Assembly: GCA_050331735.1 (NCBI GenBank)
Contig: JBHJGN010000023.1
Coordinates: forward strand, 96,001 to 160,000
Direction of reading: 5' to 3'
Source of the DNA: Cyanophyceae cyanobacterium
Lineage (GTDB): Bacteria; Cyanobacteriota; Cyanobacteriia; Cyanobacteriales; JBHJGN01
Length of the DNA stretch: 64,000 bases
Part shown: positions 14,592 to 45,377 of the stretch, piece after piece
Layout of the letters: the number at the start of each line of letters is the position of its first letter
Numbering within the stretch: the first letter of the stretch is position 1
Translations under genes and position numbers: made by a program
The notes under the pieces: model-generated
The model's database searches: none
What the model saw: the letters and a program-made list of their open reading frames with translations, nothing else
Told to the model about the DNA's origin: nothing

Positions 14592-14600
14592 CCTCTCGCC

Positions 14601-20651: not shown

Positions 20652-20693
20652 CGGTACAGGTTAGTTTGACGGTGAGTAATCAGCAATGAACAG

Positions 20694-24355: not shown

Positions 24356-24365
24356 GTCATTAATA

Positions 24366-24434: not shown

Positions 24435-24478
24435 ATTGTTAGGCTCCTGAACCCTGTATTCTTTAAGGGCAGGGTTAA

Positions 24479-25393: not shown

Positions 25394-25473
25394 AGTTAAT
25401 CAATGATGTCGTCCTTATTCAGTGACCGGTTGCCGATTGATGGTGCTGAGTAAGTTAATAATTTGTTTGTTCA

Positions 25474-26397
25474 TCAAATTAATTTGGTCACTGATAACTG
25501 TAAGAAGTTGTCCCAGGTTAAGCGTCCCGATCGCACAGCCGATTCCAAGTCTGGGTGGCTAGCGAGCAGTGCTTGGGCTTCTGGGCGGTTACTCTGGGCG
25601 CAGGCGAGGGCCGCAGCGGCTTTTTGGGTCGGATCTGGCTGAGCAAACAGCCGCTCTAGATCGGTGACGAGAGTGAGGGTGCCGTAACTACCAACGGCTC
25701 GCCACAGTTCGGGGGAAACGCTTCGCTGGGCTGACCAGCGTTCGTGGGCGTAGTCGATTAACATTTGCGCCAGTTCGGGGTTGGTGCGCTGGTCGAGTCT
25801 GTGAATGAGATGGAGTGGGCTGTCAACAAACAGCGCTTTCAGCACCAGTTGATTCCAGGCTCCGTCGTCAAAATACTCAGAGGGATAGGGGTTGCGGAGG
25901 GCAACGGCATTAAACACTGCTGTTATGTTGCTGCGCAGCCCCTCCGCTGCTCGCAAACGAAACTGTTCTGGGTACGGCAGTAGCGGTAAGGCTTGGTAGA
26001 GGGCCACTAATTCCCCGATATCCGCCGCGTTGAAGAGCTGCTCGAGGGGATGTTGGTAGGAGGCGGCATCGCGCTCGGGTAGCGACAGCACCAGCAGGGT
26101 TCGAGCCGTCTGAGTGAGGCTCCAGTGTTTGGGATTCCAGCCGGGACGGATTCTGGCGATCGCCTGCCAGTCTTCTGTGGTGAGCTGAAGAGGCTCTTTG
26201 CTAATCTGGCGCGGCACGGCACTAAACGCAGCAAACAACACTCGCGCTGGCGCTCCTTGAACAATCTGTTGTCTCTTTTGCTCCAGCCATTCTAAGCCCT
26301 CTAGGGAAGTCTGCCGCGAGAGCCAGTGATGGAGTAGAGAAGTAACACTCATTTGGTCTAGATTTTGGGCAATATACATAAGACCTTTTGCAAACAT
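25474..26397 (-). CDS. eboA: EboA protein
   Basis: ALYQALPLL, A.EGLRSN...VF.A.A..NPYP..YF...WNQLVLK, YAHERW; first gene of the ebo run. Confidence 0.9.
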   Translation of the reverse strand: MFAKGLMYIAQNLDQMSVTSLLHHWLSRQTSLEGLEWLEQKRQQIVQGAPARVLFAAFSAVPRQISKEPLQLTTEDWQAIARIRPGWNPKHWSLTQTARTLLVLSLPERDAASYQHPLEQLFNAADIGELVALYQALPLLPYPEQFRLRAAEGLRSNITAVFNAVALRNPYPSEYFDDGAWNQLVLKALFVDSPLHLIHRLDQRTNPELAQMLIDYAHERWSAQRSVSPELWRAVGSYGTLTLVTDLERLFAQPDPTQKAAAALACAQSNRPEAQALLASHPDLESAVRSGRLTWDNFLQLSVTKLI

Positions 26398-26582: not shown

Positions 26583-28316
26583 CTATTGCCTATGTCGTCT
26601 AGCCGCTACTGCCCCACCGCCTAGCAGGAGCAAACCAAGGATTGAGGACGGTTCGGGAACGGTAGCCGCTTCTTGGCCAAGATTATCTCCGGCGATCCGA
26701 ATGCGGTTATTAATGCCTCTGGCTAAATAAACGTTGCCACTGCCGTCTACGGCAACCTGGTCGTCAGCAATCGTATAGATTTCTCCGTTGCTATCCACAA
26801 GCTCAATGCGGTTAGCGATTTTCTCGGCCTGGTAATAATCTTCATCTCGATTGCCAACGATCTCGTCAGCAAACACAATTTGCCCGTCGCTATCAACCCC
26901 CAGGTCTGCGAACACCTCCTCGATGTTAAATTCGCCCCCAACGGTGAAGCTTTGCCCAAGCCCTACCTGGGGAGGAATGCTGTCGGGAATGTTGCCGCTG
27001 GCGTAGTTGGCGAGGAAGTAAAGAAAGTTGCCGTCGATGTCGTCGCCGCTGCCAAATTCGGCCAGCACAGTATCGAGAACTTCAGGACTAAGAAATTCTA
27101 GCCAACCGTTCGCTTCTGGATTGCTAGCATCGTTGGCGAGGTAACGAACAAATTCAGGACTGAGGACATCGGCGCTATCGACACCGCCACCCATTGCTGC
27201 GGCATCTCCATTGACCTGACGCTCGGAATTGCTGTTGCTGCCGAATAACGACAGACTGGTGTCGGATATTTGAAGGCTGTTGTTGATGCCGTCTACTAGA
27301 TAAACGCTTTCTTTGTCTGCAATCTCGCTAGTTTTAATGACCTGAAGGGCATTGTTGAAGCCGTCAATCAGGTGAACGCCAAGCTGCTCTGAGGTAATGT
27401 CAATTTGGGAATTGATGGCCGTGCCGCCGCTGTACGCACCGCGCTGAAGCGATAGGTTACTGCCAGCCGCATTGACCGGTTCATTGACGGAAAGATTCTT
27501 CACCCATCCTAAATTTCGGTTAGGGTTGCCGACGTTGTTGATAATGTCCGCTTCTAATTCCTCGTCGGATGCACTATCGAAGGGTCCGTCAGCGATATCG
27601 CTAAAGGCTTCCTCGAAACTACCGGATTCGCTACTGCTCACGTTCGCAATGAGAGCCCCGAGTTCGTCTCGAATCTCCTCGATGCTGGTTTCACCAGCAA
27701 AGAAATTACTATAGGCTACGGGGACAAGGGGATTGGCTCTTGGAACCCCTTTGCGGTTGGTTATTTCTAAGCGATTATTAAACCCGTCCACAATGTAGGT
27801 GTCATCCGGGGAGTTGGCAGCGTTAGCAGGAAGAGTGAGCAAGCCGTTCCTGCTTCCGTTGGTGGCGATGAGTCCGGTGTTGTTTGGGTCGCCGACCGCG
27901 ATACTTTGATTAAAATCATCAACCAGAAAGGCGTTGCCGCGCGCTGGAGCGAAGCTATCTTGTCCATCAGTAGCGGCAAGCACTCCGATAGTGGTATCGT
28001 CTAGTACTTGTAAGGTATTGTTAATGCCGTCAACGAAATAAACGTTGGTCTTTTTGGAAGCGTCGATCCCCGTCTGATTGAGGGCAGACGTGAACCAGAC
28101 GCTGCTATCTAGAACTTCAAGGACGTTATTGATGCCGTCAACGACGTAGATATTATTCGCGTTACTAATTTTTATAGCGGACGCAACCGAGTTGCTATTG
28201 GGGTTGCCAACGGTGCGCGAAAAGTCTAATGTTGTCGATGTTGCTTCGAGCGCGATCGCACTAACCATTAAACTAGCTCCAGCAAACACCACTGGCAAAG
28301 TCGAAAGTGGCTTCAT
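26583..28316 (-). CDS. Exported PEP-CTERM protein with degenerate NHL repeats (ScyF-like position)
   Basis: N-terminal signal-like segment, about 8 copies of (I/V)Y(V/L)VDG(I/F)NN.L(E/Q)V, C-terminal VPEPSSILGLLLLGGGAVAARRHRQ. Confidence 0.75.
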   Translation of the reverse strand: MKPLSTLPVVFAGASLMVSAIALEATSTTLDFSRTVGNPNSNSVASAIKISNANNIYVVDGINNVLEVLDSSVWFTSALNQTGIDASKKTNVYFVDGINNTLQVLDDTTIGVLAATDGQDSFAPARGNAFLVDDFNQSIAVGDPNNTGLIATNGSRNGLLTLPANAANSPDDTYIVDGFNNRLEITNRKGVPRANPLVPVAYSNFFAGETSIEEIRDELGALIANVSSSESGSFEEAFSDIADGPFDSASDEELEADIINNVGNPNRNLGWVKNLSVNEPVNAAGSNLSLQRGAYSGGTAINSQIDITSEQLGVHLIDGFNNALQVIKTSEIADKESVYLVDGINNSLQISDTSLSLFGSNSNSERQVNGDAAAMGGGVDSADVLSPEFVRYLANDASNPEANGWLEFLSPEVLDTVLAEFGSGDDIDGNFLYFLANYASGNIPDSIPPQVGLGQSFTVGGEFNIEEVFADLGVDSDGQIVFADEIVGNRDEDYYQAEKIANRIELVDSNGEIYTIADDQVAVDGSGNVYLARGINNRIRIAGDNLGQEAATVPEPSSILGLLLLGGGAVAARRHRQ

Positions 28317-28696: not shown

Positions 28697-29668
28697 CTAC
28701 ACAGAGGCAACAGGAGTGGCAGAATCAGCGGGTTGATAGCTCATTCCACGCGCAAACGTTTGAGTATTGCCTGCTTTAGCTTCCAGCAATCGCTTAATGT
28801 TCATGCTTTCAGCACCGAAGTCGTGGATTTGCAGCTTGCCGCGACGGAGAGGGTTCTGAGTGGGCCAGAAGGTAATTCGGTGCTGGATGAACCCCTGAGC
28901 GCTCGGGTCGCCAAAGGCGTAGGAGCAGGGAATAATGACTGTTGGACAGCGCTGCATGAAGTCATCGTTGGGGTAGTAAAAACTCTGTTCGACGATGTAG
29001 AAATTGTTAAGGTCGTGGGCTTGAAGACTCACCTCAACTTGTTGGTTATATTCATCGAGGAAATTCCCGGACTCTGTACCAACTTCGCCGTCAGCGCGGA
29101 GTAGGTGCGCCCAATCATCCATGTTGCGGAGATCTTTGAGGAATTCAAACCCAAGCTCCCCGGGGGCATCGACGTAAATCGTATCGGCATCGATCCGATA
29201 GCGTCCCTGCGCCGCTGCCGTTGTCCCGGCGTTGCGTTCTAAAATAGCTTTCAACGAGCGGCATTCGGAGGTATGAACCGTTTCAATTCCCTGCATAATC
29301 ATCGGCGTTCTTCGTTTTGGATCGACGAAGCTCAGCCAGTGAAAGTACACGCCTTGCTCGTCTGTGCCGGGTTCAATATATTCAGGAGGAAATAGGAAAA
29401 CCGGATAAACCTGAAAATATTTCTGATACTCAAATCCGCAGTGCCATTCGATCCCGCGAAAAGAGTGAGTGGCAAATTTTTTGACGTGATAGTAGAGATT
29501 GTGCTGATATCCAGACGCAGTTCCTAGCCAAGTGTTATCATCGATTTGTTCGATCATCCGGCTGTAAAGGGTCCAGTCGTCTAGATTTTCTAGAGCGTAG
29601 ATGTAATCGAAAGCCGTTTCTGGAGAGCTGGCTATGTAGGCAGATGTGGCAAAGGTATTTTCTTCCAT
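28697..29668 (-). CDS. scyC: Scytonemin biosynthesis cyclase/decarboxylase
   Basis: FATSAYI..SPETAF.Y...L.NLD.WTLYSRM, GIEWHCG, HTSECRSLK, DFGAESMNIKR; directly after scyB. Confidence 0.92.
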   Translation of the reverse strand: MEENTFATSAYIASSPETAFDYIYALENLDDWTLYSRMIEQIDDNTWLGTASGYQHNLYYHVKKFATHSFRGIEWHCGFEYQKYFQVYPVFLFPPEYIEPGTDEQGVYFHWLSFVDPKRRTPMIMQGIETVHTSECRSLKAILERNAGTTAAAQGRYRIDADTIYVDAPGELGFEFLKDLRNMDDWAHLLRADGEVGTESGNFLDEYNQQVEVSLQAHDLNNFYIVEQSFYYPNDDFMQRCPTVIIPCSYAFGDPSAQGFIQHRITFWPTQNPLRRGKLQIHDFGAESMNIKRLLEAKAGNTQTFARGMSYQPADSATPVASV

Positions 29669-29670: not shown

Positions 29671-30723
29671 TTACGATTCCTTCAGTTTCTGTTTGGCTTT
29701 CGCAATGCGTTCCTCAGCAAGTGCTTGAGCCGCTTCAAAGTTACTAATTCCCCGGCTTTCAGCCAGGGTGAATATCTCCAGTAACGTGTTGTAAATCCCG
29801 TTGAGCTGCACAAACGCCTTGGCTTCGTCGTAGCCAATCATTTCGTTGTAGACGTTGATTAAGCCTCCAGCGTTAATAACGTAGTCGGGGCAGTACAGAA
29901 TGCCCTTGGCTCTGAGTAAACGGCTATGAAGCTGCTCGTCTTCAAGCTGGTTGTTTGCTGCGCCAGCAACGATTTTTGCTCGTAGTTGAGGAATAGTTGA
30001 GCTGTTAAGAACGCCCCCTAATGCACAGGGAGAGAAGACATCAACATTTTGGGAAAAAATTTGTTCTGGCGCAACAATTTCCGCACCATATAATCGCTTA
30101 ACTTCCTCTGTTTTTTGCGGATTAATATCGCAAACGGTGAGTTTGGCTCCCTGGTCGTGCAGCCGCTGGCAAACGTTTTTACCAACGTTTCCTAATCCCT
30201 GAACCGCAACTCTTAATCCGTCTATGTTTTGGCGGTGGAAGCGGTATTCCACAGCCGCTTTGATGCCAAACAAAACACCCGTTGCCGTGACCGGAGCTGG
30301 CCCACCAGACGCTTCTGACATGCCGACAACGTATTTGGTTTCGTGGCAAATTTCTCGGACATCTTCAGGAGTTAAATTAACATCTTGGCCTGTCACAAAG
30401 CGACCGTTTAATCGATTAATAAATCGGCCATAGGCTCTCAAAAGCTCGCTGGTTTTCTCCTTGGGATCAGCTATGATCACTGCTTTGCCCCCACCAACTG
30501 GAATATTGGCACAGGCAGCTTTATAGGTCATGCCTCGACTCAGACGCAGCGCGTCTCGCAAGGCATCTTCTTCACTAGCATAGGGCCAAAGACGAGTTGC
30601 TCCCATGGCTGAACCGAGTCCCGCATCATGAATAGCAATAATGGCTCTTAGATTGCAGTCTTGGTCATGGCAATAAAGAACCTGCTCGTGCCCCATATTT
30701 CTAACTGTTTCAAAAAGCTTCAC
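29671..30723 (-). CDS. scyB: Tryptophan dehydrogenase (Leu/Phe/Val dehydrogenase family)
   Basis: GTG start; LRLSRGMTYKAA, GGGKAVI, GLGNVG, GAANNQL, PDYVINAGG; lies between scyA and scyC. Confidence 0.93.
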   Translation of the reverse strand: MKLFETVRNMGHEQVLYCHDQDCNLRAIIAIHDAGLGSAMGATRLWPYASEEDALRDALRLSRGMTYKAACANIPVGGGKAVIIADPKEKTSELLRAYGRFINRLNGRFVTGQDVNLTPEDVREICHETKYVVGMSEASGGPAPVTATGVLFGIKAAVEYRFHRQNIDGLRVAVQGLGNVGKNVCQRLHDQGAKLTVCDINPQKTEEVKRLYGAEIVAPEQIFSQNVDVFSPCALGGVLNSSTIPQLRAKIVAGAANNQLEDEQLHSRLLRAKGILYCPDYVINAGGLINVYNEMIGYDEAKAFVQLNGIYNTLLEIFTLAESRGISNFEAAQALAEERIAKAKQKLKES

Positions 30724-31164: not shown

Positions 31165-32988
31165 TCAGACGAGGGGAAAAGAAACCTGCTTTTCCTCGTG
31201 ATTGTCTTGAGGAGTCGTTTTGACTCCCTGAGCGCTGAGGCTCTTATTGCGTCCTTTAGAAGGGGCAAACCGAGTCGGATCGATGAGTACGTCTACCACA
31301 ACTGGACCCGCGGCGGCGATCGCCTGCTGCAAGGCTTCCGCTAGTCCAGCTTCGGCAGTGACGCGAATGCCCTGAGCGCCCATGCCGCGAGCAATCAGAC
31401 TAAAGTCTGTCTCCGGCAGCTTGGCGTCTGCCCCCGTCATGCCGAGCATTTGCATTCCCTGGTTGCACATATTGTAGTAAGCATCGTTGAGCACAATCCA
31501 TACGGCTGGAAGCTGATACTTAACGGCGGTGCTGATTTCACCACTGTTCATCAGCATGGCTCCGTCTCCGGCGATCGCCACCGCTTTGCCGTTGCGCCCT
31601 TGGGCAGCTCCCACAACGCCCGTGACGTTATGACCCATCGAGCCAACCCCAGTGCTGACGCGGTAGCGGTTCGGCTGGGGGAACCGGAGGAAATGAGTCG
31701 CCCAGGTAAAGGAGTTCCCCGATTCTGCCAGCACTACCGCATCGCTGCCTTCCACGACCACGCGCTGAATAGCCTCCATGAGGATTTCTGGGCGCACCAA
31801 GTTGCTCTCTGCTAGGGTAATATCGTCTTTCTCGGGAGTGGGAAACGCTCCTGGTTCTGACGGAGGCAAATGATTCAGTAGTGCCTGCACAAAGACGTCG
31901 GCATCGGCGATCACAGGATAGGTTTGGGCAAACGGATAGGCGACACCAGGAACTTTCGGATCGATATCAACATGAATAAATCCTTTGGCAGGAACCATCT
32001 CATGGCTCCAAAATGAAGTCGGTTCGCCTAAACGTGTACCGATCACCAAGGTTCGGTGGGGTCGATGATCCTGAAGATACTCCAGCACCGATTCGTGACC
32101 GCCTAATCCTGTAACGCCGACAAACTGAGCATGATTTTCGGGGAAAACGCCTTTTCCGCGCGGCGAACACATCACAGCGGCTCCGGTTTTCTCGGCAAGC
32201 TGAAGAATGCTCTGAGCCGCTCCCCGCGCTCCGTAGCCGACCCAGATAGCAAACGGTCCTTCAGACAGCAGGGCGGCGACTTTAGACACCGTTTTCTGGC
32301 TAGGAACCGACAGATCTGGGGCTAAATTGACTTCCGGCACCGCCGTGGTCATCGGCGCAGACTGTACGGCAGTGGGAATGCTGATGTGAGCGACAAAAGT
32401 TCCCCTTTGGGAAACGCCTAGAGCTAATCGGCGAGCAATTTGGGGAAGCTGCTGCGGAGACTCAAGAACGGTAGCGTAGTTAAACAGGGCTCCAGAAGTA
32501 AAAATACCGCCTTGGGGAATGGTTTGCTCGCTGGTTTCTTGAATCGCCCACCGTCCGCGCTGTGGTGCAGACGTGCAGGCCGAAAAATGAATTACTTTTG
32601 CCCCTTCGTCCCGCGCTGCCATTAATCCAGTGAGCGAGTTGGTGATGCCGGGACTAGCGGTTGAAAAGGAAACCACCGGACGGTTGCTGGCAAAATGAGC
32701 TTCAGTCGCGGCAAAGGTCGCGCCGCTCTCGTGACGACAGTGCAGCACCTCAATCAGAGGGCTGTTGGATAAAGCGCCCCATAGCGTTGCCATCGCGCCA
32801 CCAGATACGCCAAAGGCTTCGCGGACTCCTAATGCTTCGAGAGCTTTTACCAGTGCCTGGGCAACGGTCAGTGAGGCGGTGCCGTTACCGTTGCTGGTAG
32901 AGGCGATCGCGTCCTGCTGGCGATTGTTGCCATCGCCATTGTGGTTCTCCACGAAGAATGATTGTTTTTGAGTCAAGTTTTCAGTCAT
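31165..32988 (-). CDS. scyA: ThDP-dependent acyloin synthase (acetolactate synthase-like)
   Basis: FGVSGG, HCRHESGA.FAA, ThDP motif GDGAMLMN...VLND; upstream of scyB and scyC. Confidence 0.93.
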   Translation of the reverse strand: MTENLTQKQSFFVENHNGDGNNRQQDAIASTSNGNGTASLTVAQALVKALEALGVREAFGVSGGAMATLWGALSNSPLIEVLHCRHESGATFAATEAHFASNRPVVSFSTASPGITNSLTGLMAARDEGAKVIHFSACTSAPQRGRWAIQETSEQTIPQGGIFTSGALFNYATVLESPQQLPQIARRLALGVSQRGTFVAHISIPTAVQSAPMTTAVPEVNLAPDLSVPSQKTVSKVAALLSEGPFAIWVGYGARGAAQSILQLAEKTGAAVMCSPRGKGVFPENHAQFVGVTGLGGHESVLEYLQDHRPHRTLVIGTRLGEPTSFWSHEMVPAKGFIHVDIDPKVPGVAYPFAQTYPVIADADVFVQALLNHLPPSEPGAFPTPEKDDITLAESNLVRPEILMEAIQRVVVEGSDAVVLAESGNSFTWATHFLRFPQPNRYRVSTGVGSMGHNVTGVVGAAQGRNGKAVAIAGDGAMLMNSGEISTAVKYQLPAVWIVLNDAYYNMCNQGMQMLGMTGADAKLPETDFSLIARGMGAQGIRVTAEAGLAEALQQAIAAAGPVVVDVLIDPTRFAPSKGRNKSLSAQGVKTTPQDNHEEKQVSFPLV

Positions 32989-33129: not shown

Positions 33130-35022
33130 TTAAGCAATGGTGTCAGGAGCACCACTGCCAATCGGTAATGGAATTCCAAATTCGCCTACTGGACCAGCAA
33201 CATTCAGATTCACTCCGCCATCTTCGGTGGTGTTAATACCCGCTCCAAAAGAGCCAATGCCAGCAGCACCACTTTGCAGCGGCGAATCGTCATCGCTAGC
33301 GGCTTCATCCGAACTCAAGAACCAGTTTCCTTCCTCATCGTTGAGGAGGTAGGCACCACCAGCAACAGGAATCGCCAGTTCGCTACCCTCTAGGAACGGA
33401 TTGGCAGCCGGAATTTCAAAGCCGTCTTCACCAGCGGGAATATTGGCTCCACCACCAACAGGGAACTGGATGCCGTCTTCACCAGCTACAGGAGCACCCG
33501 GTCCAACAGGAAGCTCCAGCTCGCCCTCTTCGCCGAAAATTGGCAGTTCAAATCCGCCAGCAAACTCTAGTTCGCCCTCGTCATTGAGAGCGGGAGCGCC
33601 ACCACCAATGGGAGGCTCAAATCCGCCCTCTTCGTTGAACAGGGGAATATTGCCGACATTCGGAATCTCTAGTTCGCCCTCGTCATTGAGAGCGGGAGCG
33701 CCACCAACGGGAGGCTCAAATCCGCCCTCTTCGTCGAGAACCGGAGCAACGCCAACAGGTAGCTCAAACTCGCCCTCTTCGTTGAGCAGAGGAACGTTGA
33801 TGCCGCCGGGAATTTCTAGAACGCCCTCATTATTGACAACGGCACTGCCAACCGGGCCGCCAACGGGAGGCTCTAATTCGCCTTCCTCGTTGAAGAGAGG
33901 AATGGCAACGTCATTGGGAAGAACAACCTGACCATCTTCGTTCAGTTCTACAGAGCCGTCACCGAAGGAGCCGTCGCCACCGAAGTCCCACACCCAAGGA
34001 GAGTCAGAAGCAGCAGGAGCGTCATCAACCGGTGTGCCGGTAGACACGGCGAGCTCTTCGTTAGAAAGTCCTTCGGGAACCTGTCCGACCGGAAAAATTC
34101 CCGCCGCAGAATCGGTGCCAGGAATATCAGAGCTGTCGGAAAGAGCGGCAGTGGGGTCAAATTCAAACGGGTTGCCGCCGAAAGGATTTCCTCCAGAAGA
34201 TAAGAGCTCTTCACTAACACCAGGAACATCAGGATTAGAAATAGAAGTGTCGTCGTCGCTTGGTTCAGCATCGTCACTGAGGAGCCACTCGCCATCCTCG
34301 CTTCTGATGATGTAGCTTTCGTCATCACCAACCACGACTTCACCGGTATCGGGAAGGCTGCCCAGACCGCCAGCGTCAGAATCAGCATCACCGCCTGGGA
34401 AAGAAACGTTAGGCTCGTCGCCCTCAACAAGAGGATTTCCTTCTGTTAGAGGATCCCAACCGGCCCAGGGGTTTTCTCCTCCGCCAGCACCGCCACCAAA
34501 GGGGCTACCGCCGCCAGAGTTGCCGCCGCCAAAGCCGCCAGCACCGCCACCGAAGGGGCTGCCACCGCCACCAAAGCCGCCAGCACCACCGCCACCGAAG
34601 GGGTTGCCACCGTCCATAGAGGGGCTACCATTGTTATTGGGGGTTTCCCCGCCTGTAGAGGAGTCCGTTCCATTTCCACCGGAGGGCTCCTCTCCGCCTG
34701 CGCCGCCCCCAAAAGGATTTTGTCCAGGAACACCGACGTTACCAAAAATATCTTCCGGACCGTCAATACCCGGTAAATCGAGTAAGCGACCAAATGGGCT
34801 GCTGCTGAGCTGGCTCATCATATCTGAACCGCCACCAGCATCGCCAAAGTCGTAATTGTAGTTGGGGTCTGTGTTGGTATTAGGAGCACCGCCCATCGGA
34901 CCACCGGAAGAGGCACCGCCGTCAGAGTTGCCGCCGCCGAAGCCACCAGCACCGCCACCGAAGGGGCTACCGCCGCCAGAGTTGCCGCCGCCGCCGAAGC
35001 CGCCCATATTTCCACCAAACAT
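33130..35022 (-). CDS. Gly/Pro/Glu-rich low-complexity repeat protein B (unknown function)
   Basis: 630 aa; RBS GAGGA before the ATG; (S/N)PFGGGAGGFGGG repeats and about ten PLFNEEGELE.P.GG-like repeats; no Lys, Cys or His. Confidence 0.8.
   Translation of the reverse strand: MFGGNMGGFGGGGNSGGGSPFGGGAGGFGGGNSDGGASSGGPMGGAPNTNTDPNYNYDFGDAGGGSDMMSQLSSSPFGRLLDLPGIDGPEDIFGNVGVPGQNPFGGGAGGEEPSGGNGTDSSTGGETPNNNGSPSMDGGNPFGGGGAGGFGGGGSPFGGGAGGFGGGNSGGGSPFGGGAGGGENPWAGWDPLTEGNPLVEGDEPNVSFPGGDADSDAGGLGSLPDTGEVVVGDDESYIIRSEDGEWLLSDDAEPSDDDTSISNPDVPGVSEELLSSGGNPFGGNPFEFDPTAALSDSSDIPGTDSAAGIFPVGQVPEGLSNEELAVSTGTPVDDAPAASDSPWVWDFGGDGSFGDGSVELNEDGQVVLPNDVAIPLFNEEGELEPPVGGPVGSAVVNNEGVLEIPGGINVPLLNEEGEFELPVGVAPVLDEEGGFEPPVGGAPALNDEGELEIPNVGNIPLFNEEGGFEPPIGGGAPALNDEGELEFAGGFELPIFGEEGELELPVGPGAPVAGEDGIQFPVGGGANIPAGEDGFEIPAANPFLEGSELAIPVAGGAYLLNDEEGNWFLSSDEAASDDDSPLQSGAAGIGSFGAGINTTEDGGVNLNVAGPVGEFGIPLPIGSGAPDTIA
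33565..33734 (-). repeat. Near-identical intragenic duplication, 102-bp offset
   Basis: ctctagttcgccctcgtcattgagagcgggagcgccacca at 33565 and 33667. Confidence 0.85.
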
Positions 35023-35156
35023 GTATGTGTCCTCTTATAGATAACGTTGTCAATTCGTTTGCCTTTGCGTCCTGCAATTAAATGGCAAACTTAATAGAAA
35101 GACTTGCGTTAACAAGCCTGAGTAGCTCACAATGTATTGCTACTGCTGAATGTGTC

Positions 35157-36728
35157 CTACGCCACTGGTAGAACATCCGGGGGAACATCTGTCGGAACTT
35201 CTCCTTCAGGGAAGATTCCTGCTGCACCACCCATAGAAGCATCGGTATCTGGTAAAGAACCTGTACCGGCACCATTCAAACTTTCGTAAACCTGGTCAAC
35301 AATCCCCTGACCTTCAGTATCGACTTCCACAGGCATCTCACCGCCGTTTAGAAGTGCGTCTGGTTCACCTTCATCAGATGCTCCAGCTACTCCGGTGAAG
35401 TCGAAGGTATAGTTAGGGTCACTGGCAGACTCGTCACTCACTAAGGTGACGCTGCCATCAGCATTAGTCTCGAAGTAGCGATCGGCGTTACCAAAGATGG
35501 TCAAATTATCGTCATCTAGGGTAAAGCGATTGCCGTTGATGCTGTTGCCGTCGCCGCTAACTCGATTGCTGTTGCCAGAAATACTGTTATCGCTACCGCT
35601 CGGACGGTTACCGTTCCCGCTCACCTGGTTGTTATCTCCGAGGCTCCAGTTCCCGTTGCCGTTGTCGATGGCGTTGTTACTGCCAAAACTCCAGTTCCCA
35701 TTGCCGGAAATGTTGTTCGTGCTACCGAAGTTCCAGTTCCCGTTGCCGTTGATGACGTTTTGGTTGCCGGTGGGATCCTCAGCGGTATCCGGCGTTTCAC
35801 CGTCGCCAACCGGAGTTGGTGTCGTGCTACCGCCCGACAATACGGGGTTGTTCCCGCCAACGTCTGCAAGCGGAGCATCGCCCTCGCCGAAACCAGACGG
35901 ATTACCGCCACTGAGAGGATTATTGTTCCCAGCAAACAAGTTATCAAAGGGAGTACCGCCCTCTTCTGCGTTCAGGTTCCAGTTTCCGTTTCCGCTGATC
36001 TGATTTCCTTCACCGAAGTTCCAGTTTCCGTTTCCACTAGCTTGGTTATCGTTGCCAAAGAACCAGTTTCCGTTTCCGTCAGCTAGATTGCCGCTGCCGG
36101 TTTCTCCCTCTGAATCCCCGAGAAAGTTGTTGCCGTTACCGTTGTCGGTGTTGCCAACACCCGTGTCGATGCTGCCGCTGAATCCACCGCCCATGCCCAT
36201 CATTGAGCCGCCGCCACCAAAAGGAGTTTCGGTGACACCTTCAGAGCCCTCACTCGGAGTATCATCTTCTTCAGTAAAAGGGCTGCCCTCGGTATTGGGG
36301 TCGTAGCCTCCTGCGAAGGGATTCGACGAGTTGTCTTCCGCATTGCCGCCAAAACTACCGAAGGGCATACCGCCACCAGCACCAGCCATGTCGCCACCGC
36401 CAGCAAAGATGTCGCCGACGTTGCCGAACTCTTCAAACTCCAGCAGTTGGTCAAAGGGAGTCCGCATCGGCAAACCGCTGTCGTGATCGTATTCATATCC
36501 CTCGGCGGGAGCTAACGGATCGCCAAGCGCCCCTCCTCCAAAGCCGCTAGCTGTTCCTCCTGCTAGCGGGTTACTCCCTCCGGCAAACGGGTTGCCGGAG
36601 GGAGAATCGTATTCATCGCTACCATCGGCACCAGCACCATCTGATAGGCTATTTACTGGAACGGTAGGCTCCCCTGAAGCAGCATCAGCAGACGTGCTTA
36701 TCGGGTTCACTGTTAGTTCTTCAGCCAT
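35157..36728 (-). CDS. Gly/Asn/Asp-rich repeat protein A with GNGNW 14-residue repeats (putative beta-roll)
   Basis: 523 aa; NPFAGG motifs; GNGNW(N/F/S)(F/L)G..N..S repeats grading into xxNx(V/I)SG heptads; no Lys or Cys. Confidence 0.8.
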   Translation of the reverse strand: MAEELTVNPISTSADAASGEPTVPVNSLSDGAGADGSDEYDSPSGNPFAGGSNPLAGGTASGFGGGALGDPLAPAEGYEYDHDSGLPMRTPFDQLLEFEEFGNVGDIFAGGGDMAGAGGGMPFGSFGGNAEDNSSNPFAGGYDPNTEGSPFTEEDDTPSEGSEGVTETPFGGGGSMMGMGGGFSGSIDTGVGNTDNGNGNNFLGDSEGETGSGNLADGNGNWFFGNDNQASGNGNWNFGEGNQISGNGNWNLNAEEGGTPFDNLFAGNNNPLSGGNPSGFGEGDAPLADVGGNNPVLSGGSTTPTPVGDGETPDTAEDPTGNQNVINGNGNWNFGSTNNISGNGNWSFGSNNAIDNGNGNWSLGDNNQVSGNGNRPSGSDNSISGNSNRVSGDGNSINGNRFTLDDDNLTIFGNADRYFETNADGSVTLVSDESASDPNYTFDFTGVAGASDEGEPDALLNGGEMPVEVDTEGQGIVDQVYESLNGAGTGSLPDTDASMGGAAGIFPEGEVPTDVPPDVLPVA

Positions 36729-37372: not shown

Positions 37373-39571
37373 ATGAAATTAACATCCCACCGTTACACGA
37401 CTCAAGGCGGCATCAGCGTCACTCGCTCTCGGGCTAAAATTCTGATGGAGACAGCAACAGACAGGATTTTATCCCGCTTAAACTCGCAAAGAGGCGGCTT
37501 GCTCGCCAGTAGCTACGAGTATCCGGGACGGTATAAGCGGTGGGCGATTGGATTTATCAATCCTCCCCTAGAATTGGCCACCCGCGATCGCACATTTACT
37601 ATCGCAGCTCACAACGAGCGCGGCCAGGTGCTGTTGCCCTTCATCGCTGACTGGCTGCGGGGACACGACCACCTAGAGCACCTCGAACTTCAGGAGCAGC
37701 GCCTCACGGGAGCCGTTAAGCCAGCGACTCAGTTCTTCTCCGAAGAGGAGCGCAGCAAGCAGCCATCGGTGTTTACGCTAGTGCGAGAACTCAGCCGTGC
37801 CTTCTTCAGCCACGAAGACGAAAACCTGGGGCTGTACGGCGCTTTTGCCTACGATTTAGTCTTTCAGTTTGAATCAATTACCCAACACCGCGATCGCCCC
37901 AACGATCAGCGCGACTTGGTTCTCTACCTGCCAGACGAACTCGTGGTGGTGGATTACTACTTGCAGAGCGCTTACTGCATCCAGTACGATTTCACCACCG
38001 AACACGGCACCACCAGAGGACTTCCACGGACCGGGGAAGCGATCGATTATCGCGGGGCTCAGCTTACTCCCGAGCGGGAATCCGACCATCACAGAGGCGA
38101 CTATGCCAAAAAAGTCGGCGTGGCTTTAGAATACTTTCGGCGCGGCGATCTCTTTGAAGTCGTTCCCAGCCAAAGCTTTTATCGCAACTGTGCCGAAACG
38201 CCAGCCAAGCTGTTCGAGATTCTCCAGCAGATCAACCCCAGTCCCTACGGCTTTCTGCTTAACCTCGGCGGCGAATACCTCATCGGTGCGTCTCCAGAAA
38301 TGTTTGTGCGCGTAGAAGGAAAATGCGTCGAAACCTGCCCGATCAGCGGCACCATCAGCCGGGGTCAGGATGCCATCGATGATGCCGCTCAAATCCGCCA
38401 GTTGCTCAACTCTCACAAGGACGAGGCCGAACTAACCATGTGTACCGACGTAGATCGCAACGATAAATCGCGGATCTGCGAACCCGGCTCGGTCCAGGTC
38501 ATCGGTCGTCGCCAGGTAGAGCTGTATAGCCATCTGATCCACACCGTCGATCACGTTGAGGGTATTTTGCGACCGGAATTTGATGCCCTTGATGCCTTTC
38601 TTACCCATACCTGGGCCGTAACGGTAACGGGAGCCCCCAAACGCTCAGCGATGCAGTTTGTCGAACAGCACGAACACAGCGCCCGTCGCTGGTATGGCGG
38701 GGCGGTGGGGTATCTCGCCTTCAACGGCGATCTCAACACCGGGTTGACGCTGCGCACCATTCGTCTCAAAGATTCCATTGCTGAAGTGAGAGTGGGGGCC
38801 ACGGTTCTCTATGACTCCAATCCCGAAGCCGAAGAAGAGGAAACCCATACCAAGGCAGCCGCCCTCTTTCAAACTCTCTGTGATGCCTGTCAAGGGTGCG
38901 AGACGGCGACGGGAACAGCATCCCGCAGCCCCAGCACAGTTTTTCCCGAGTCCTTAGCCCAGCGGATTCTGCTCATCGACTACGAAGACTCCTTCGTTCA
39001 CACCCTCGCTAACTACCTGCGGCAGTCAGGAGCCACGGTCACTACTCTCCGTCACGGCTTCCCCGAATCAGTCCTCGATTCCGAAGCACCCGCTCTCGTA
39101 GTGCTGTCTCCCGGTCCCGGCAAACCCAGCGATTTCCGCGTTCCCGAGATGGTGCAGGCGTGCGTACGACGGCAGCTCCCTGTGTTTGGTGTTTGTTTGG
39201 GGCTACAGGGAATCGTAGAAGCCTTTGGCGGCGAACTGGGCATTCTTGACTATCCCCAACACGGCAAGACCTCTCAAATTCTCGTGGTGGAGCCAGAATC
39301 GCGCCTGTTCAAAAATCTACCGCAGTCTTTTGAAGTGGGTCGCTACCACTCCCTGTTTGCCCTTCCCCATCGCCTGCCCGATGCGCTTCAGGTCACGGCA
39401 GTCTCAGAAGATAACGTCGTCATGGCGATCGAACATAAGGAGTTGCCCATTACTGCCGTTCAGTTCCATCCCGAATCCATCATGAGCTTGGCGGGTGGAG
39501 TCGGACTAGCGATTATTAATAATGTGATTCAGGCTCAGGCAGCGAGCGCTCCTGTTGTCTCGATTAAGTAG
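37373..39571 (+). CDS. trpE: Anthranilate synthase, fused TrpE-TrpG
   Basis: SSYEYPGRY, GASPEMF, PISGT..RG, GAPK; C-terminal GATase DSFVHTL, SPGPG.P, GVCLGLQ, QFHPES. Confidence 0.95.
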   Translation: MKLTSHRYTTQGGISVTRSRAKILMETATDRILSRLNSQRGGLLASSYEYPGRYKRWAIGFINPPLELATRDRTFTIAAHNERGQVLLPFIADWLRGHDHLEHLELQEQRLTGAVKPATQFFSEEERSKQPSVFTLVRELSRAFFSHEDENLGLYGAFAYDLVFQFESITQHRDRPNDQRDLVLYLPDELVVVDYYLQSAYCIQYDFTTEHGTTRGLPRTGEAIDYRGAQLTPERESDHHRGDYAKKVGVALEYFRRGDLFEVVPSQSFYRNCAETPAKLFEILQQINPSPYGFLLNLGGEYLIGASPEMFVRVEGKCVETCPISGTISRGQDAIDDAAQIRQLLNSHKDEAELTMCTDVDRNDKSRICEPGSVQVIGRRQVELYSHLIHTVDHVEGILRPEFDALDAFLTHTWAVTVTGAPKRSAMQFVEQHEHSARRWYGGAVGYLAFNGDLNTGLTLRTIRLKDSIAEVRVGATVLYDSNPEAEEEETHTKAAALFQTLCDACQGCETATGTASRSPSTVFPESLAQRILLIDYEDSFVHTLANYLRQSGATVTTLRHGFPESVLDSEAPALVVLSPGPGKPSDFRVPEMVQACVRRQLPVFGVCLGLQGIVEAFGGELGILDYPQHGKTSQILVVEPESRLFKNLPQSFEVGRYHSLFALPHRLPDALQVTAVSEDNVVMAIEHKELPITAVQFHPESIMSLAGGVGLAIINNVIQAQAASAPVVSIK

Positions 39572-39582
39572 GATAAAACACT

Positions 39583-40473
39583 ATGCAGATTCGTCGCCGT
39601 TGCGCACCGAGCCACTCGGGTTATCAGATTGTTGCTCCTGACGCGCCACCCCGTCATATTTTGGAAGAGATCGTTTGGCACAAAGAGCAAGAAGTGGCGC
39701 TGATGCAGGAACAAGTGCCGCTGGCTACCTTAAAGCAGCAAGTTTCATTCGCTGCGCGAGATTTTGTCTGTGCGCTTGAGCAGAATTCGCGGCAGCCGAG
39801 CCTGATTGCTGAGGTGAAAAAAGCCTCTCCTAGTCAAGGGGTAATGCGAGCCGATTTCGATCCGGTCAGCATTGCGCAGGCTTACGAGCGCAGCGGTGCT
39901 GCCTGCCTATCGGTCCTCACCGATTACCGTTTTTTCCAGGGCAGTTTTGATAACCTGCGGCGCGTACGGCAGCACGTCTCTTTACCGCTGCTGTGCAAAG
40001 AGTTTATTATCGATTCGTACCAGATCTATCTGGCGCGAGCGGCTGGAGCTGATGCGGTGCTGTTGATTGCTGCTATTTTGAGCGATCGCGATCTTCACAA
40101 ATTTATGTCGCTCATTCACTCGCTCGGCATGAACGCGCTGGTGGAAGTGCACACTTCAGCAGAACTCGCTCGCGTCCTAACGTTGCCGAATTTACGCCTG
40201 CTCGGAATCAACAACCGCAATCTTGAAAATTTCACGGTCGCTCTTCAAACCACCCAGCAGCTCATGGCGACTCATCCCCAAATTCGTGACTTAGGCATCA
40301 CGGTAGTCAGTGAATCGGGAATTCACGGGTCAGCAGATTTGCAGTTTGTGCGCACAGCAGGAGCCAGAGCGGTACTGGTTGGTGAATCCCTAGTCAAGCA
40401 GCCTAACGTCGAGCAGGCCGTCAGCAAGCTTTACAGCGATGCGGCGTTAGTTAAGTCGCTAGGACAAGGATAA
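39583..40473 (+). CDS. trpC: Indole-3-glycerol phosphate synthase
   Basis: [38 protein letters not shown]. Confidence 0.96.
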
Positions 40474-40597
40474 TTACGGTCTTTCTCCTGGTAAGGTTGC
40501 ACTTAAAGAGGGGGGAAACGGGGTGCCGTTGTCAAGAGACAATCAAGCAAATATCGCCTCTACGTTAACGTATTAGCAGTAAACGACTACCACTAAA

Positions 40598-41416
40598 ATG
40601 ACTTCTATTTCTGAACGCTTCAATTTTCTTAAAGACCGTCAGCAATGCGCTCTGATTCCGTTTATTACCGCTGGCGATCCCGATTTGGCCACCACCGAGA
40701 AAGCTCTCAAAGTTTTAGACCAGAACGGGGCTGATATCATTGAGCTGGGAATTCCCTATTCCGATCCCCTCGCCGATGGTCCCGTGATTCAGGCAGCCGC
40801 TACTCGCGCCCTTCAGCGAGGTACTAAGCTAGAGCAGGTGCTGGAGCTGGTGAAAAGGGTTAGCCCAGATTTGCAGGCTCCAATTGTGTTATTTACGTAC
40901 TACAATCCAATTCTCAATCGCGGGATTCGCTCGTTTCTAGAGCAAATTGCCGCCGCTGGAGCGCGGGGTCTCGTGGTGCCGGATTTACCCATCGATGAAG
41001 CCTCCGAGCTGCTAGAAACGGCAGCGGAGCTGGGAGTAGAGGTCATTTTACTGGTGGCTCCTACCTCCTCAGCCCAGCGCATCGAGGCGATCGCTCAGCG
41101 CTCTCAAGGCTTTATCTATTTGGTGAGCGTCACGGGCGTTACCGGCATGCGGACTCAGGTGCAGACACGGGTGAAAGATCTGCTCGCTCAGATGCGTACG
41201 CTCACCGATAAGCCCATCGGCATTGGCTTCGGCATTTCTGGGGGCGACCAAGCTCGCCAGATGAAGGACTGGGGAGCCGATGCGGTGATTGTTGGTAGCG
41301 CCTTTGTTAAGCGTCTAGCCGGTAGTTCTCAAGCCGAAGGTCTTGAGGCTGTCCAAAAGCTGTGCCAAGAACTTAAAGAAGCGATCGCCAGCGTTAAGGA
41401 AACCGTCTCCGCCTAG
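40598..41416 (+). CDS. trpA: Tryptophan synthase alpha chain
   Basis: [38 protein letters not shown]. Confidence 0.97.
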
Positions 41417-41517
41417 TAATGTAAGGATAAACGGCGAGCCATCAAAATAATATCCGTTCATTCTATGCCAATTCACCCAGCCTTGACCACACTCTTTCGT
41501 ACATTCGATCAATCAAT

Positions 41518-42750
41518 ATGGTAGCAACTCCCGATAAACCCATTAATGCTCAGCGCCCCGATTCTGCGGGACGCTTCGGACAATTTGGCGGCAAGTACGT
41601 TCCAGAAACGCTCATGCCCGCCCTCGATGAGCTAGAAGCAGCATTCCACCAGTACTGCGGCGAACCAGAATTTGAAGCAGAACTGCAACATCTGCTCAAA
41701 GATTACGTCGGTCGTCCCACTCCGCTCTACTTTGCTGAGCGGTTGACGGCGCACTACGCTAAGCCGGACGGGACAGGACCGCAGATTTACCTCAAGCGCG
41801 AAGATCTCAACCACACGGGCGCTCACAAAATTAATAATGCTCTGGCCCAGGTACTGTTGGCTAAGCGCATGGGCAAAGAGCGCATCATCGCTGAAACCGG
41901 AGCCGGACAGCACGGTGTCGCCACCGCCACCGCCTGCGCTCGCTTCGGGCTGAAGTGTATCGTCTACATGGGCGTTCACGACATGGAGCGACAGGCGCTC
42001 AACGTCTTTCGGATGCGCCTCATGGGAGCTAAAGTAGCTCCCGTTGAGGCCGGAACCGGGACTCTGAAAGACGCAACCTCTGAAGCCATCCGCGACTGGG
42101 TGACCAACGTCGAAACCACTCACTACATCCTCGGCTCTGTCGCCGGTCCCCACCCTTACCCGATGCTGGTCCGAGATTTTCACGCCATCATCGGTGAAGA
42201 AACTCGCATTCAGGCCCAGGAAAAATGGGGAGGGTTACCAGATATTCTGCTAGCTTGTGTCGGCGGTGGCTCCAATGCCATTGGTCTATTTCACGATTTT
42301 GTTAAAGAACCCTCCGTCCGGCTGATTGGCGTTGAAGCAGCCGGAGAAGGCGTAACTACCGAAAAACACGCCGCTACCCTCACCAAAGGTCGGGTTGGCG
42401 TTCTCCACGGAGCGATGAGCTACCTGCTCCAAAATGAAGACGGACAGCCCATTGAAGCTCACTCCATTAGTGCTGGACTCGATTACCCGGGTGTCGGACC
42501 AGAGCATAGCTACCTTAAAGAAACCGGGCGGGCAGAGTACTACAGCGTCACCGACCAGCAGGCACTTCAGGCCCTGGAGTTACTGTCGCGGCTAGAAGGC
42601 ATTATTCCGGCGCTAGAAACGGCCCACGCTTTTGCCTATCTAGAAACTCTCTGTCCGCAGCTAGCAGGCAGCCCCAAAATTGTCATCAACTGCTCAGGAC
42701 GCGGCGACAAAGATGTTCAAACCGTCGCTAAGTACTGGAAGCCTTCTTAA
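41518..42750 (+). CDS. trpB: Tryptophan synthase beta chain
   Basis: [48 protein letters not shown]. Confidence 0.98.
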
Positions 42751-42876
42751 AAGCGATTAGCCGTTAGCTGATTCATGAGTCATGTTCCAAACTCAAGACA
42801 AAGCGAAAAGCTTTCTTGAAGCTAGCAGCTAACAGCTAAAAATGCTCACCTGTGTACCCCCTACTTTGATAGACCT

Positions 42877-43959
42877 ATGGTTGAAACACCCACCAGAGAA
42901 GCCCCCCTTACTGAATCGCCAGCGTGGTCCGCTCTGCTCCAGCAGCTCCTTGACCGGGAATCGCTCGCGGTTTCTCAAGCCGCCGATTTGATGCAGGGAT
43001 GGCTCTCTGACGCGATTCCTCCGGTCATTTCTGGGGCCATCCTAGCCGCGATTCAGTGCAAAGGAGTCACCGCTGAAGAACTGTTGGGCATGGTTCAGGT
43101 TCTCCATGCTCAATCGGTGAGACCCGCCGTGGCCCACACCGATACTCCTATTATCGATACCTGCGGTACGGGAGGTGATGGAGCCTCAACGTTTAATATT
43201 TCGACAGCGGTTGCTTTTGTGGCGGCGGCGGCAGGAATTAAGGTTGCCAAACACGGCAATCGTTCCGCGTCGAGTAAAACAGGCTCGGCAGACGTGCTCG
43301 AAGCGTTGGGGGTCAATCTCCAGGCCAGTCCTCACCAGGTGCAGGCAGCAGTTGATGCTGTCGGAATTACGTTTCTATTTGCTCCCGGCTGGCATCCGGC
43401 CCTCAAGTCTGTTGCTCCTTTGCGGAAAACCCTCAAAATTCGCACCATTTTTAACCTGCTCGGTCCCTTGGCCAATCCCCTCCAGCCGACAGGTCAGGTT
43501 CTGGGAATTAGCGACCCGACTCTAGTGGAAACGTTTGCTCAGGTGCTGCGGCAAATGGGCACTCGCCGTGCCGTTGTCGCTCACGGACGGGAGAAGCTAG
43601 ATGAGGCCGGACTAGCGGATGTCACCGATTTGGCGGTGGTGACCGAGCAGCAAATCCAAACCGTTGAGCTTCATCCCGAACAGGTTGGTCTGAGCGTTGC
43701 TCCCACCGCTGCCATTCGCGGCGGCAACGTTCAGGAAAACGCCGAGATCCTCAAAGCCGTACTTCAGGGTCGAGGCACTCAGGCTCAGCAGGATGTGGTC
43801 GCTCTCAATGCCGCCCTCGCCTTGTTCGTCGGCGAAGCGATCGCTAAACCGAGCCTCCCAGAGACATTTACCACAGGAGTGGCTCAGGCCAAGGATGTGC
43901 TTCGCAGTGGCGAAGCCTGGCACAAGCTAGAAGAACTCGCTCAATTTCTGCGGAATTAA
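42877..43959 (+). CDS. trpD: Anthranilate phosphoribosyltransferase
   Basis: [40 protein letters not shown]. Confidence 0.97.
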
Positions 43960-44009
43960 ACCTAATTCACGGAAATGATGACCAATATTTAAGCAAAAGG
44001 ATAGTAACA

Positions 44010-45071
44010 ATGATTGTTGTCACTAAAAGTGGAACACCAGAAGAGGAAATCAATCGCATTTGTCAAGAATTAAGCACAACCTGGCAGGTTACTCCTGAAA
44101 AGAGTGCCGGACGACATAAAGTGGTCATTGGCATGATTGGCGATACGGCTAATCTAGACCCCCTGCAAATCCAGGAGGTGAGTCCCTGGATTGAGCAAGT
44201 CCTCCGCGTCGAAAAACCGTTTAAGCGAGTCAGTCGCGAATACCGTCACGGAGAAGCTAGTGATGTGGTTGTTGACACACCTAACGGTCCTGTACATTTC
44301 AGCGAGCAGGCTCCCCTGGCGATCGTGGCGGGGCCTTGCTCTGTGGAAAACGAAGCGATGATTATCGAAGTCGCCCAGCGCGTCAAAGCCGCTGGAGCTA
44401 AATTTTTAAGGGGCGGAGCCTACAAGCCCCGGACTTCTCCCTATTCCTTCCAGGGCCACGGCGAAAGCGCGTTAGGACTGCTGGCGGCAGCGAGAGCCGC
44501 TACCGGATTAGGCATTATTACGGAAGTCATGGATACTGCCGATATTGACATCGTTGCCGAGGTGGCCGATGTCCTCCAGGTCGGAGCGCGCAACATGCAG
44601 AACTTCGCCCTGCTTAAAAAAGTCGGAGCCCAGGACAAGCCCGTATTGCTCAAGCGCGGCATGGCCGCAACCATCGATGATTGGCTGATGGCGGCAGAAT
44701 ACATTCTCGCTTCCGGCAACCCCAATGTCATTCTCTGTGAACGAGGCATTCGCACGTTCGATCAGCGCTACACGCGGAACACGTTAGATCTGTCGGTCGT
44801 TCCCGTTCTGCGCAGCCTGACCCATCTGCCGATCATGATCGATCCCAGTCACGGAACCGGGAAGTCAGAGTTTGTCCCAGCAATGGCGAAAGCGGCGATT
44901 GTTGCCGGCACTGATTCACTGATGATTGAGGTTCACCCCAATCCAGCCAAAGCGCTCTCCGACGGTCCTCAATCTCTCAATCCCGAGCAGTTCGACCGTC
45001 TGGCGCGAGAGTTAGTCACCCTGGCTCAATCGATGGACCGCTGGGAGCAACCCTCTCCAGCGCTGGTCTAA
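44010..45071 (+). CDS. aroF: DAHP synthase, class I-beta, with N-terminal regulatory domain
   Basis: [44 protein letters not shown]. Confidence 0.94.
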
Positions 45072-45075
45072 GATA

Positions 45076-45337: not shown

Positions 45338-45377
45338 CATACTGATCATTTGTCCTCCCGGCTTTACTTGAATAATT

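Follow-up and report, generated by a model that had tools for sequence, protein, structure and literature searches.

What do two genes for extremely acidic, Gly-rich proteins do at the head of a scytonemin gene cluster? The question is raised by a stretch of 64,000 nucleotides from a cyanobacterium of the Cyanophyceae (GenBank assembly GCA_050331735.1, contig JBHJGN010000023.1, positions 96,001 to 160,000 of the forward strand), here termed the window. The two genes, A and B, lie directly upstream of scyA on the same strand:

35157..36728, minus strand: gene A, 523 amino acids (aa), with an acidic Gly-rich low-complexity N-terminus, a split beta-roll, a hairpin cap and an acidic tail (80 homologues; AlphaFold 2 (AF2) model)
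33130..35022, minus strand: gene B, 630 aa, with NPF/SPF-Gly repeats, an H motif, hairpins and 17-residue acidic repeats, and no roll (Atlas model at predicted local distance difference test (pLDDT) 0.36)

An original prediction, made from the sequence of the window alone, had taken the pair for a structural component of the sunscreen system. Here, we compare A and B with their relatives across cyanobacterial genomes and with known systems. The distribution of the family supports its membership of the scytonemin system well, and A and B are very probably a dedicated accessory of this pathway. Their role is addressed through their fold, their shared modules and the export signals of their homologues.

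Distribution of the family and of the scytonemin genes

In the order sample (291 genomes), a profile of the A roll was applied at E 1e-12 and ScyC served as the pathway marker. The roll occurs in 22 genomes and ScyC in 23; every genome with the roll also has ScyC, and the 268 genomes without scyC gave no roll match. Roll and scyC are also jointly patchy within families (11/17 genomes for both in f18, 2/12 in f2, 2/7 in f14 and 1/17 in f33), which suggests that the two were lost or gained together more than once. In the phylum sample (401 genomes, overlapping the order sample), 12 genomes show the exact repeat pattern; each of them belongs to the 21 with a ScyA-like match, and the other 380 lack it. 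A strong roll match is found in 11 of the 15 genomes of this sample that have both scyA and scyC, the source genome included, while five genomes with only a ScyA-like match have no roll. In one further genome, G416, scyA carries three stops, scyC is missing and the roll is a 5′-truncated remnant (L145, G416:C1, about 1134650-1135170), so that by its sequence this genome is a case of joint decay of roll and scy genes. Genomes whose roll locus lacks a nearby scy marker mostly carry scyC elsewhere (42 of the 46 tested); the four misses comprise two Planctomycetota pattern matches outside the family and two metagenome-assembled genomes.

Linkage to the scytonemin genes is frequent and varied in form. 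Among the 22 roll genomes of the order sample, roll and scyC share contig and strand at a distance of up to 7 kb in 11 and lie 26-38 kb apart in three; in six they are on different contigs, and in two they are far apart on the same replicon. At least 121 loci were found, of which 80 named ones were fetched with their flanks; these contain scyABC in six cases, an ebo block in two and a trp/aro block in 23. A trp block alone is not proof of scy linkage, because duplicated trp blocks exist (PMC6529634). The family is found at four different positions of the scy cluster. The gene order is scyABCDEF-[B-PEP]-[roll-PEP]-eboA in L131-L133 and scyF-[roll]-eboA in L129 and L147, and the roll stands beside ebo genes in L016, L051, L067 and L080. 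The original prediction had tied its case to homologues linked to scy genes, and this expectation is borne out: the family tracks scyC nearly one-to-one and recurs inside scy clusters, with many Nostoc-type copies unlinked.

Several copies occupy recurrent sites of their own. A tail-less Nostoc paralogue precedes a response-regulator gene at a conserved, unlinked position (L015, L024, L028, L052, L065 and L072), with pheT nearby in five of the six loci. A second, PEP-tailed Nostoc copy is preceded by genes for a Zn-dehydrogenase and a pentapeptide-repeat protein and by a B-type gene (L010, L017, L018, L025, L026, L049 and L064). In the Rivularia/Plectonema loci L038, L044, L045 and L075, a pair of B-type and roll genes occurs twice in tandem after trpD.

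Composition of A and B

Both open reading frames (ORFs) are confirmed on the minus strand where the original prediction had placed them, with 523 and 630 codons' worth of protein, and conserved homologues and fusions speak against shadow ORFs or an artefact. The reported lack of Lys, Cys and a signal peptide likewise agrees with composition and N-terminal hydropathy. Lys and Cys are absent from both proteins and Arg is rare (five in A, two in B); a hydrophobic N-terminus is found in neither, the best 10-residue hydropathy being 0.6 and 0.5. The net charge is -75 for A and -105 for B, or -0.14 and -0.17 per residue, and Gly makes up 20% and 24%. For Lys plus Arg the two rank lowest among the 3036 six-frame ORFs of at least 200 aa in the whole genome, and their composition groups with RTX-type proteins. 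By tblastn, neither has a paralogue in the source genome, and plasmids gave no match. The (N/S/T)PF(A/G)GG motifs described earlier as many are present, at three in A and five in B.

A and B as one family

A and B belong together as modules of a single family, separate genes in the window and fused in relatives. In nine of ten long homologues tested (887-1102 aa), A aligns to the N-terminal half and B to the C-terminal half, in the order of the window; one such fused homologue, in Pleurocapsa sp. CCALA 161 (L057), stands between trpE and scyA, the same site as A and B. The modules shared within the window, and the repeats of B, are as follows:

36405..36464, minus strand: H motif in A (PFxxLL..DIF), aa 89-108, a diverged copy; the A-side profile finds the copy in B
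35421..35513, minus strand: beta-hairpin cap, A aa 406-436, strands in the model; profile match in B 558-576
35160..35273, minus strand: A C-terminal tail, aa 486-523, duplicating the SLPDT and AAGIFP segments of B (profile tests)
34726..34812, minus strand: H motif in B, aa 71-99, 32.3 bits
33382..33945, minus strand: eleven acidic repeats of B, about 17 residues each, of the type P-x-x-N-E-E-G-x-x-E-x-P, aa 360-547

The original prediction had listed short motifs common to A and B, and all are present. As raw motif pairs, only AAGIFP..VP exceeds shuffled sequences (0/300 global and 0/300 block shuffles reach it), the remaining pairs lying at p 0.13-0.5. Profiles built from homologues on the A side, with 300 block shuffles as control, establish three of the shared segments as homologous: they match the H motif of B at 19.2 bits (shuffle maximum 4.7), the B hairpin/SSDEAAS segment (B 558-576) at 12.3 bits (maximum 3.2) and the AAGIFP tail of B at 23.6 bits (maximum 5.3). 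Two other pairs are at chance level against the A-side profiles, DPNY.F scoring 3.3 bits in B against a shuffle maximum of 4.5 and DP..EG.P giving no match. The 32.3 bits of the H motif in B were obtained with a profile of stand-alone B-type proteins from other genomes (shuffle maximum 5.2; next ORF of the genome 4.8); the reciprocal profile from B-type genes scores the H motif of A itself at 2.9 bits, which is within shuffles. A second hairpin copy in B is seen by alignment only (diagonal A392-452/B211-271). The motif order that had been described as shuffled is better explained by tandem modules that are partly duplicated. The GNGNW beta-roll repeats of A and the acidic repeats of B had been overlooked.

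The H motif, probably an amphipathic helix, accompanies the roll widely: of 76 loci with a roll ORF, 38 have it in a neighbouring gene of the same orientation, 25 in the roll protein itself and 48 in at least one of the two. The homologue search returned 80 homologues of A and 26 rows for B, the named ones nearly all cyanobacterial and annotated as hypothetical. Searched with a profile, 1.84 billion representatives gave 54 proteins at E 1e-10, in which matches weaker than about 1e-13 are a mixture of more family members or fragments, other beta-roll proteins and YadA-type proteins. Single-protein search is less sensitive: among 61 relatives it gave only two weak matches and missed G013, later matched by the profile. 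In the ESM Atlas, A belongs to one unnamed cyanobacterial cluster (0.91) and B has no match. A PPE label borne by one homologue in UniRef was rejected, as that homologue has no NCBIfam match and A no PPE Pfam match.

The modules also occur in other arrangements. In L135:6342-10072, scyA is preceded by four consecutive small genes in which A/B modules occur separately (roll, NPF-Gly, H-like and hairpin repeats). Among B-like proteins, P0097, P0098, P0100 (Dankookia rubra) and P0102 include one named from an alphaproteobacterium, and P0097 and P0100 each bear the H motif twice and have an N-terminal repeat of another kind. A metagenome scan with the Dankookia-type protein found only four loci, of cyanobacterial type.

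The predicted beta-roll of A

The roll of A is built from a 14-residue repeat, G-N-G-N-W-x-F-G-x-x-N-x-x-x, in two segments:

35964..36161, minus strand: first GNGNW roll segment, A aa 190-255, three W coils, moderate model confidence
35490..35768, minus strand: main 14-residue-repeat beta-roll, A aa 321-413, with Asn ladders and W-to-R and F-to-L/S columns

In the 410 repeats of the fetched loci, conservation is 100% for G1 and N4, 99% for N2, 80% for W5, 84% for F/Y7 and 90% for N11. AF2 with a 55-sequence alignment places A aa 321-420 at pLDDT 85-96, with a strand every seven residues, and most other parts below 50; a single-sequence model (pLDDT 40.6) was not used. The original prediction had pictured, as one option, aromatic stickers with Gly spacers; a description as a disordered protein of this kind is incomplete, because A has a predicted folded beta-roll core.

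This conservation bears on whether A and B are mere passengers, low-complexity genes inherited with the cluster and of no consequence for the pathway. Their lengths and repeats do change fast, and the family is absent from four of 15 scy genomes in one sample. Against this stand the invariant Gly and Asn positions and the conserved Trp, retention in scyC genomes even where the genes are unlinked, and the joint decay in G416, and we regard a passenger status as very improbable.

Among 48,161 chains, the best structural match to the model is the ryegrass ice-binding beta-roll 3ULT (LpIBP), at Z 14.6 and a root mean square deviation (rmsd) of 1.4 Å over 111 residues, followed by CbpF (14.1), UspA1 (13.6) and YadA (13.4). 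Since Z values of this size are common for repeats, they fix the fold class and not the function. A Foldseek search of the PDB had no match at E 0.001, 3ULT reaching E 0.08 with probability 1.00. In sequence, the A roll matches the ryegrass protein by phmmer at E 2.5e-6 and the family PF21300 (LbR_Ice_bind) at 24.7 bits, below the cut-off of 30.

In both LpIBP and A, each coil has 14 residues, made up of two heptads, and Asn occupies position 4; the predicted model, fold match and repeat profile of A agree with the LbR_Ice_bind trait of a beta-roll of 14-residue coils with Asn ladders. The two proteins differ in that A has W-x-F in one heptad where LpIBP has small residues, and in that the roll of A is set in long acidic low-complexity arms, falls below the Pfam cut-off, is cyanobacterial and is linked to scy genes. 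The ice-binding face of LpIBP is flat and made of small Thr, Ser and Val residues. The corresponding columns in A hold W/R and F/L/S in one heptad and N/S/Q and S/D/N in the other; across the family, the second-heptad columns are T/A and I/L. Could A and B be ice-binding or desiccation protectants that merely share a habitat with scytonemin producers? The ryegrass protein is the best match in both fold and sequence, but the roll lies below the family cut-off, bulky W/R and F/L/S residues fill a face that has small residues in 3ULT, and habitat does not account for insertion at four operon positions. This explanation is extremely improbable.

The compact core of 3ULT leaves no space for Trp. 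As the model of A overlays 3ULT closely, and as Arg takes over the W column in the final coils of most homologues, we infer that the W and F columns face outward.

The second group of structural neighbours, the YadA-type heads (CbpF 9GH4, UspA1 3PR7, YadA 1P9H and AtaA 3WP8), belongs to the same solenoid class (Z 13.4-14.1), and the most distant matches of the profile search include YadA_head proteins. A differs from these in having no PF05658 match, stalk, membrane anchor or signal peptide, and the rmsd is 2.6-4.5 Å. A Pfam search of A for trimeric autotransporter features (YadA_head repeats, stalk, anchor, signal peptide) gave no match at E 0.1.

That the closest folds include adhesin heads and CsgA (Z 12.6-14.1) is relevant to another explanation, in which A and B are structural proteins of the sheath that belong to the sunscreen regulon and bind no pigment; the aromatic face would bind polysaccharide or other rolls and build a laminated sheath that later traps scytonemin. 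The same co-occurrence and PEP-CTERM evidence speaks for it, PEP-CTERM proteins are tied to extracellular polysaccharide (EPS) adhesion in Nostoc (PMC12188702), and many family copies are unlinked. A general sheath protein should, however, also occur in cyanobacteria that form a sheath but lack scyC; the roll is absent from all 268 genomes of this kind in the order sample, and the family is located between scyF and eboA and shares modules with ScyE. On balance, a purely structural role is somewhat unlikely.

Export tags and the connection with ScyE

A and B as found in the window have acidic C-termini with no Pfam or NCBIfam match to a PEP-CTERM tail, and no RTX nonapeptide repeats. They do have traits of type I secretion substrates, being leaderless, acidic, Cys-free and poor in Lys and Arg, in a genome with a secretion apparatus: the type I secretion adaptor TIGR01843 is over its cut-off, with neighbouring stretches. 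The source genome also encodes an exosortase (CrtB, TIGR04156, 446 bits). PEP-CTERM-like tails are found by pattern and hydropathy in homologues of both A and B, in 37 rows, a few of which are the same gene fetched twice. Support from hidden Markov models for these tails is weak (PF07589, 17.5 bits versus 20.7 for L132; no match for P0078 or L129). In three PEP-tailed rows, a hydrophobic in-frame stretch lies upstream of the ATG. A literature search for potential-driven export of acidic N-tails found nothing relevant.

The pathway proteins ScyD, ScyE and ScyF offer a comparison. A and B share the operon block with them, many homologues share a C-terminal sorting tag, and in some genomes modules are common to the family and ScyE. 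A and B are, by contrast, beta-roll or low-complexity proteins rather than propeller-like, have no signal peptide and, in the window, no PEP tail; the NCBIfam models for ScyA-F give no match to A or B at E 0.1.

The scy cluster of this genome has neither scyD nor scyE. The only ScyE-family gene of the genome is on another contig (L149:3223-6726, G000:C75) and encodes a leaderless protein of 1167 aa, fused to a GDSL-like domain and RTX repeats. The first GDSL motif normally holds the catalytic Ser; the fusion has FGDR there. The leaderless, RTX-tailed form of this ScyE suggests export past the outer membrane. ScyE-GDSL fusions with varying C-terminal modules occur directly after scyC in L057:17533-20375, L134:15034-18222 and L136:11141-14827, and all three loci have tail-less A-type genes upstream of scyA, so the export style of A and B tends to follow that of ScyE. 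An exception is L135, where ScyE is a canonical PEP-CTERM protein and the four A/B-module genes are nevertheless tail-less. Module sharing is direct in two of these loci: the ScyE homologue of L136 has an inserted H motif (23 bits), and the C-terminal domain of the L134 ScyE is, by eye, the same as the C-terminus of the B-type protein P0092.

The original prediction had offered two settings for A and B, a cytoplasmic condensate concentrating ScyABC or a matrix protein of the sheath. The extracytoplasmic setting fits better, because homologues of both A and B have PEP-CTERM tails, are placed after scyDEF and share modules with ScyE; the condensate is the less likely of the two. As a cytoplasmic sink or scaffold, the leaderless proteins would bind the photosensitising monomer or cluster ScyABC and pass the monomer to an Ebo exporter, with the PEP-like tails as an inner-membrane tether. 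A signal peptide is indeed absent from A, B and all 37 PEP-tailed rows, A and B stand upstream of scyA here and beside ebo genes in four other loci, mutants that accumulate monomer are damaged under UVA (PMC6282210), and aromatic stickers do lie within Gly spacers. On the other side, homologues that keep the PEP motif and a basic cluster at the C-terminus should, under the model of PMC1569441, point their N-terminal domain outward and be processed by exosortase. The composition is that of secreted proteins, and the net charge per residue with almost no cations opposes self-condensation. ScyABC also produce monomer in Escherichia coli without A and B (PMC4870267). A cytoplasmic role is distinctly unlikely.

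A putative role for A and B

The reading that we prefer, with confidence a little short of even, is that A and B may form an extracytoplasmic, non-enzymatic, pigment-binding scaffold beside ScyE. A and B would be two halves of a dedicated scytonemin accessory outside the cytoplasm. The outward W and F columns would provide an aromatic track for the flat, poorly soluble scytonemin monomer or dimer, while the H motif and NPF-Gly repeats could act as multivalent docking sites joining A, B and ScyE. The acidic chains, free of Lys and Arg, might hold the complex in solution and anchor it in the sheath polysaccharide, perhaps via Ca2+. Export would be independent of a Sec leader and use the PEP-CTERM tail in other clades or, here, the route of the RTX-tailed ScyE. 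In sum, exported monomer would be captured and presented to ScyE, and pigment carried to or deposited in the sheath.

The nearest functional analogue may be WspA of Nostoc commune and N. flagelliforme, an acidic sheath protein that binds scytonemin non-covalently in vitro (PMC8445988). According to the same source, WspA is made under UV or desiccation and is exported atypically; it differs from A and B in being a beta-galactosidase and in not being described within a scy operon. Absence from some scy genomes suggests that A and B serve as an adjuvant comparable to ScyF, the loss of which does no more than reduce the yield (PMC4870267); they are probably not essential.

A number of observations weigh against a scaffold of this kind or against its link to the pathway. 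The sampled genomes are related, so the co-occurrence counts overstate independence, and four of the 15 genomes with scyA and scyC in the phylum sample lack a strong roll match (none in G101, G188 and G386; only E 5e-7 in G263). The roll is distant from scyC on the same replicon in G552 and G141, no scy block lies within the flank in 49 of the 80 fetched loci, and the published 18-gene cluster of N. punctiforme has no such gene assigned within it. The orientation of the side chains comes from sequence register and not from coordinates. Stacked aromatic ladders also serve as oligomer interfaces or in sugar binding. A and B carry no export tag of any kind, be it a signal peptide, a PEP-CTERM tail or RTX repeats. 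By a hydropathy proxy for signal peptides (not SignalP), a hydrophobic N-terminus is found in 0 of the 37 PEP-tailed rows compared with 24 of the 26 other PEP-CTERM proteins encoded in these loci, and 97% of the PEP-CTERM class has a signal peptide (PMC1569441).

A more far-reaching version of the scaffold makes A and B the missing carrier and template of the pigment: the roll would order scytonemin in the sheath, the arms with the H motif and ScyE would form an extracellular deposition complex, and export would follow an undescribed, signal-peptide-free route common to the PEP-CTERM-tailed members. With an RTX-tailed ScyE, dimerisation would then take place outside the outer membrane and not in the periplasm. 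Taken as a whole, this version is rather unlikely.

An undescribed accessory family

A and B represent an undescribed accessory family of a known pathway. The open-access literature searched (subscription papers were outside its scope) contains no description of the family, the excerpted comparative studies of the scy operon do not mention it, and neither do the excerpts of PMC2726228, PMC12188702, PMC9127174, PMC8445988, PMC7997468, PMC6529634, PMC13707963, PMC9796282, PMC6027354, PMC7072191, PMC6282210, PMC1569441, PMC4870267 and PMC10957091. The family is easy to overlook, because it is of low complexity, has no family model and all but escapes trypsin, B yielding no tryptic peptide of 7-40 aa and A two.

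How scytonemin passes from periplasm to sheath is described as an unanswered question in PMC7997468, and heterologous hosts have to date produced the monomer only (PMC12188702). Given the roll in 22 of 23 scyC-positive and none of 268 scyC-negative genomes, the family is a direct candidate for the step from periplasm to sheath. Leaderless PEP-CTERM members together with an RTX-tailed ScyE would revise the export model of the pathway.

The gene neighbourhood of the window

A and B are separated by 134 base pairs (bp), B and scyA by 141 bp, and A and the divergent trpE by 644 bp. The leftward promoter assumed in the original prediction is not supported: a scan of the region gave seven sites where 6.7 are expected by chance. 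A terminator scan was also at chance level (15 versus 11.6 expected), with one weak terminator-like hairpin in the gap between A and B. A look-up of sequencing runs for positions 31200-37300 of the window listed none that holds RNA. The remaining genes of the scytonemin region are:

31165..32988, minus strand: scyA (NF035923, 1003.6 bits, just under the cut-off of 1020)
29671..30723, minus strand: scyB (NF035922, 631 bits, over the cut-off)
28697..29668, minus strand: scyC (NF035924, 606 bits, over the cut-off)
26583..28316, minus strand: divergent ScyF-like PEP-CTERM protein with a signal-peptide-like N-terminus (NF035926, 43 bits against a cut-off of 350; TIGR02595 over its cut-off)
18585..26397, minus strand: block of eboA, eboB, eboC, an aroB/eboD-like gene, eboE, eboF and trpF (eboA by NF035937; other names from translations and gene order)
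37373..46454, plus strand: divergent supply arm trpE C A B D aroG tyrA (names from translations; synteny as in PMC6529634)
47543-48316, minus strand: AraC-type response regulator (Pfam domains)
49239-50843, plus strand: PAS histidine kinase (Pfam domains)

From their position, the AraC-type regulator and the PAS histidine kinase are the probable scy two-component system. The ScyF-like protein has repeated VDG(I/F)NN motifs and an acidic insertion, and a similar form follows scyC in L030. According to the translations, the ebo arm ends with the trpF-like gene (18585-19274), followed on the opposite strand by an Hsp20-like gene (18064-18528). A glycosyltransferase cluster with an ABC-2 (Wzm/Wzt-like) exporter, also named from translations, adjoins the scy cluster at 929-15431 of the window; an ABC-2-type permease has been discussed for export of the monomer (PMC6282210).

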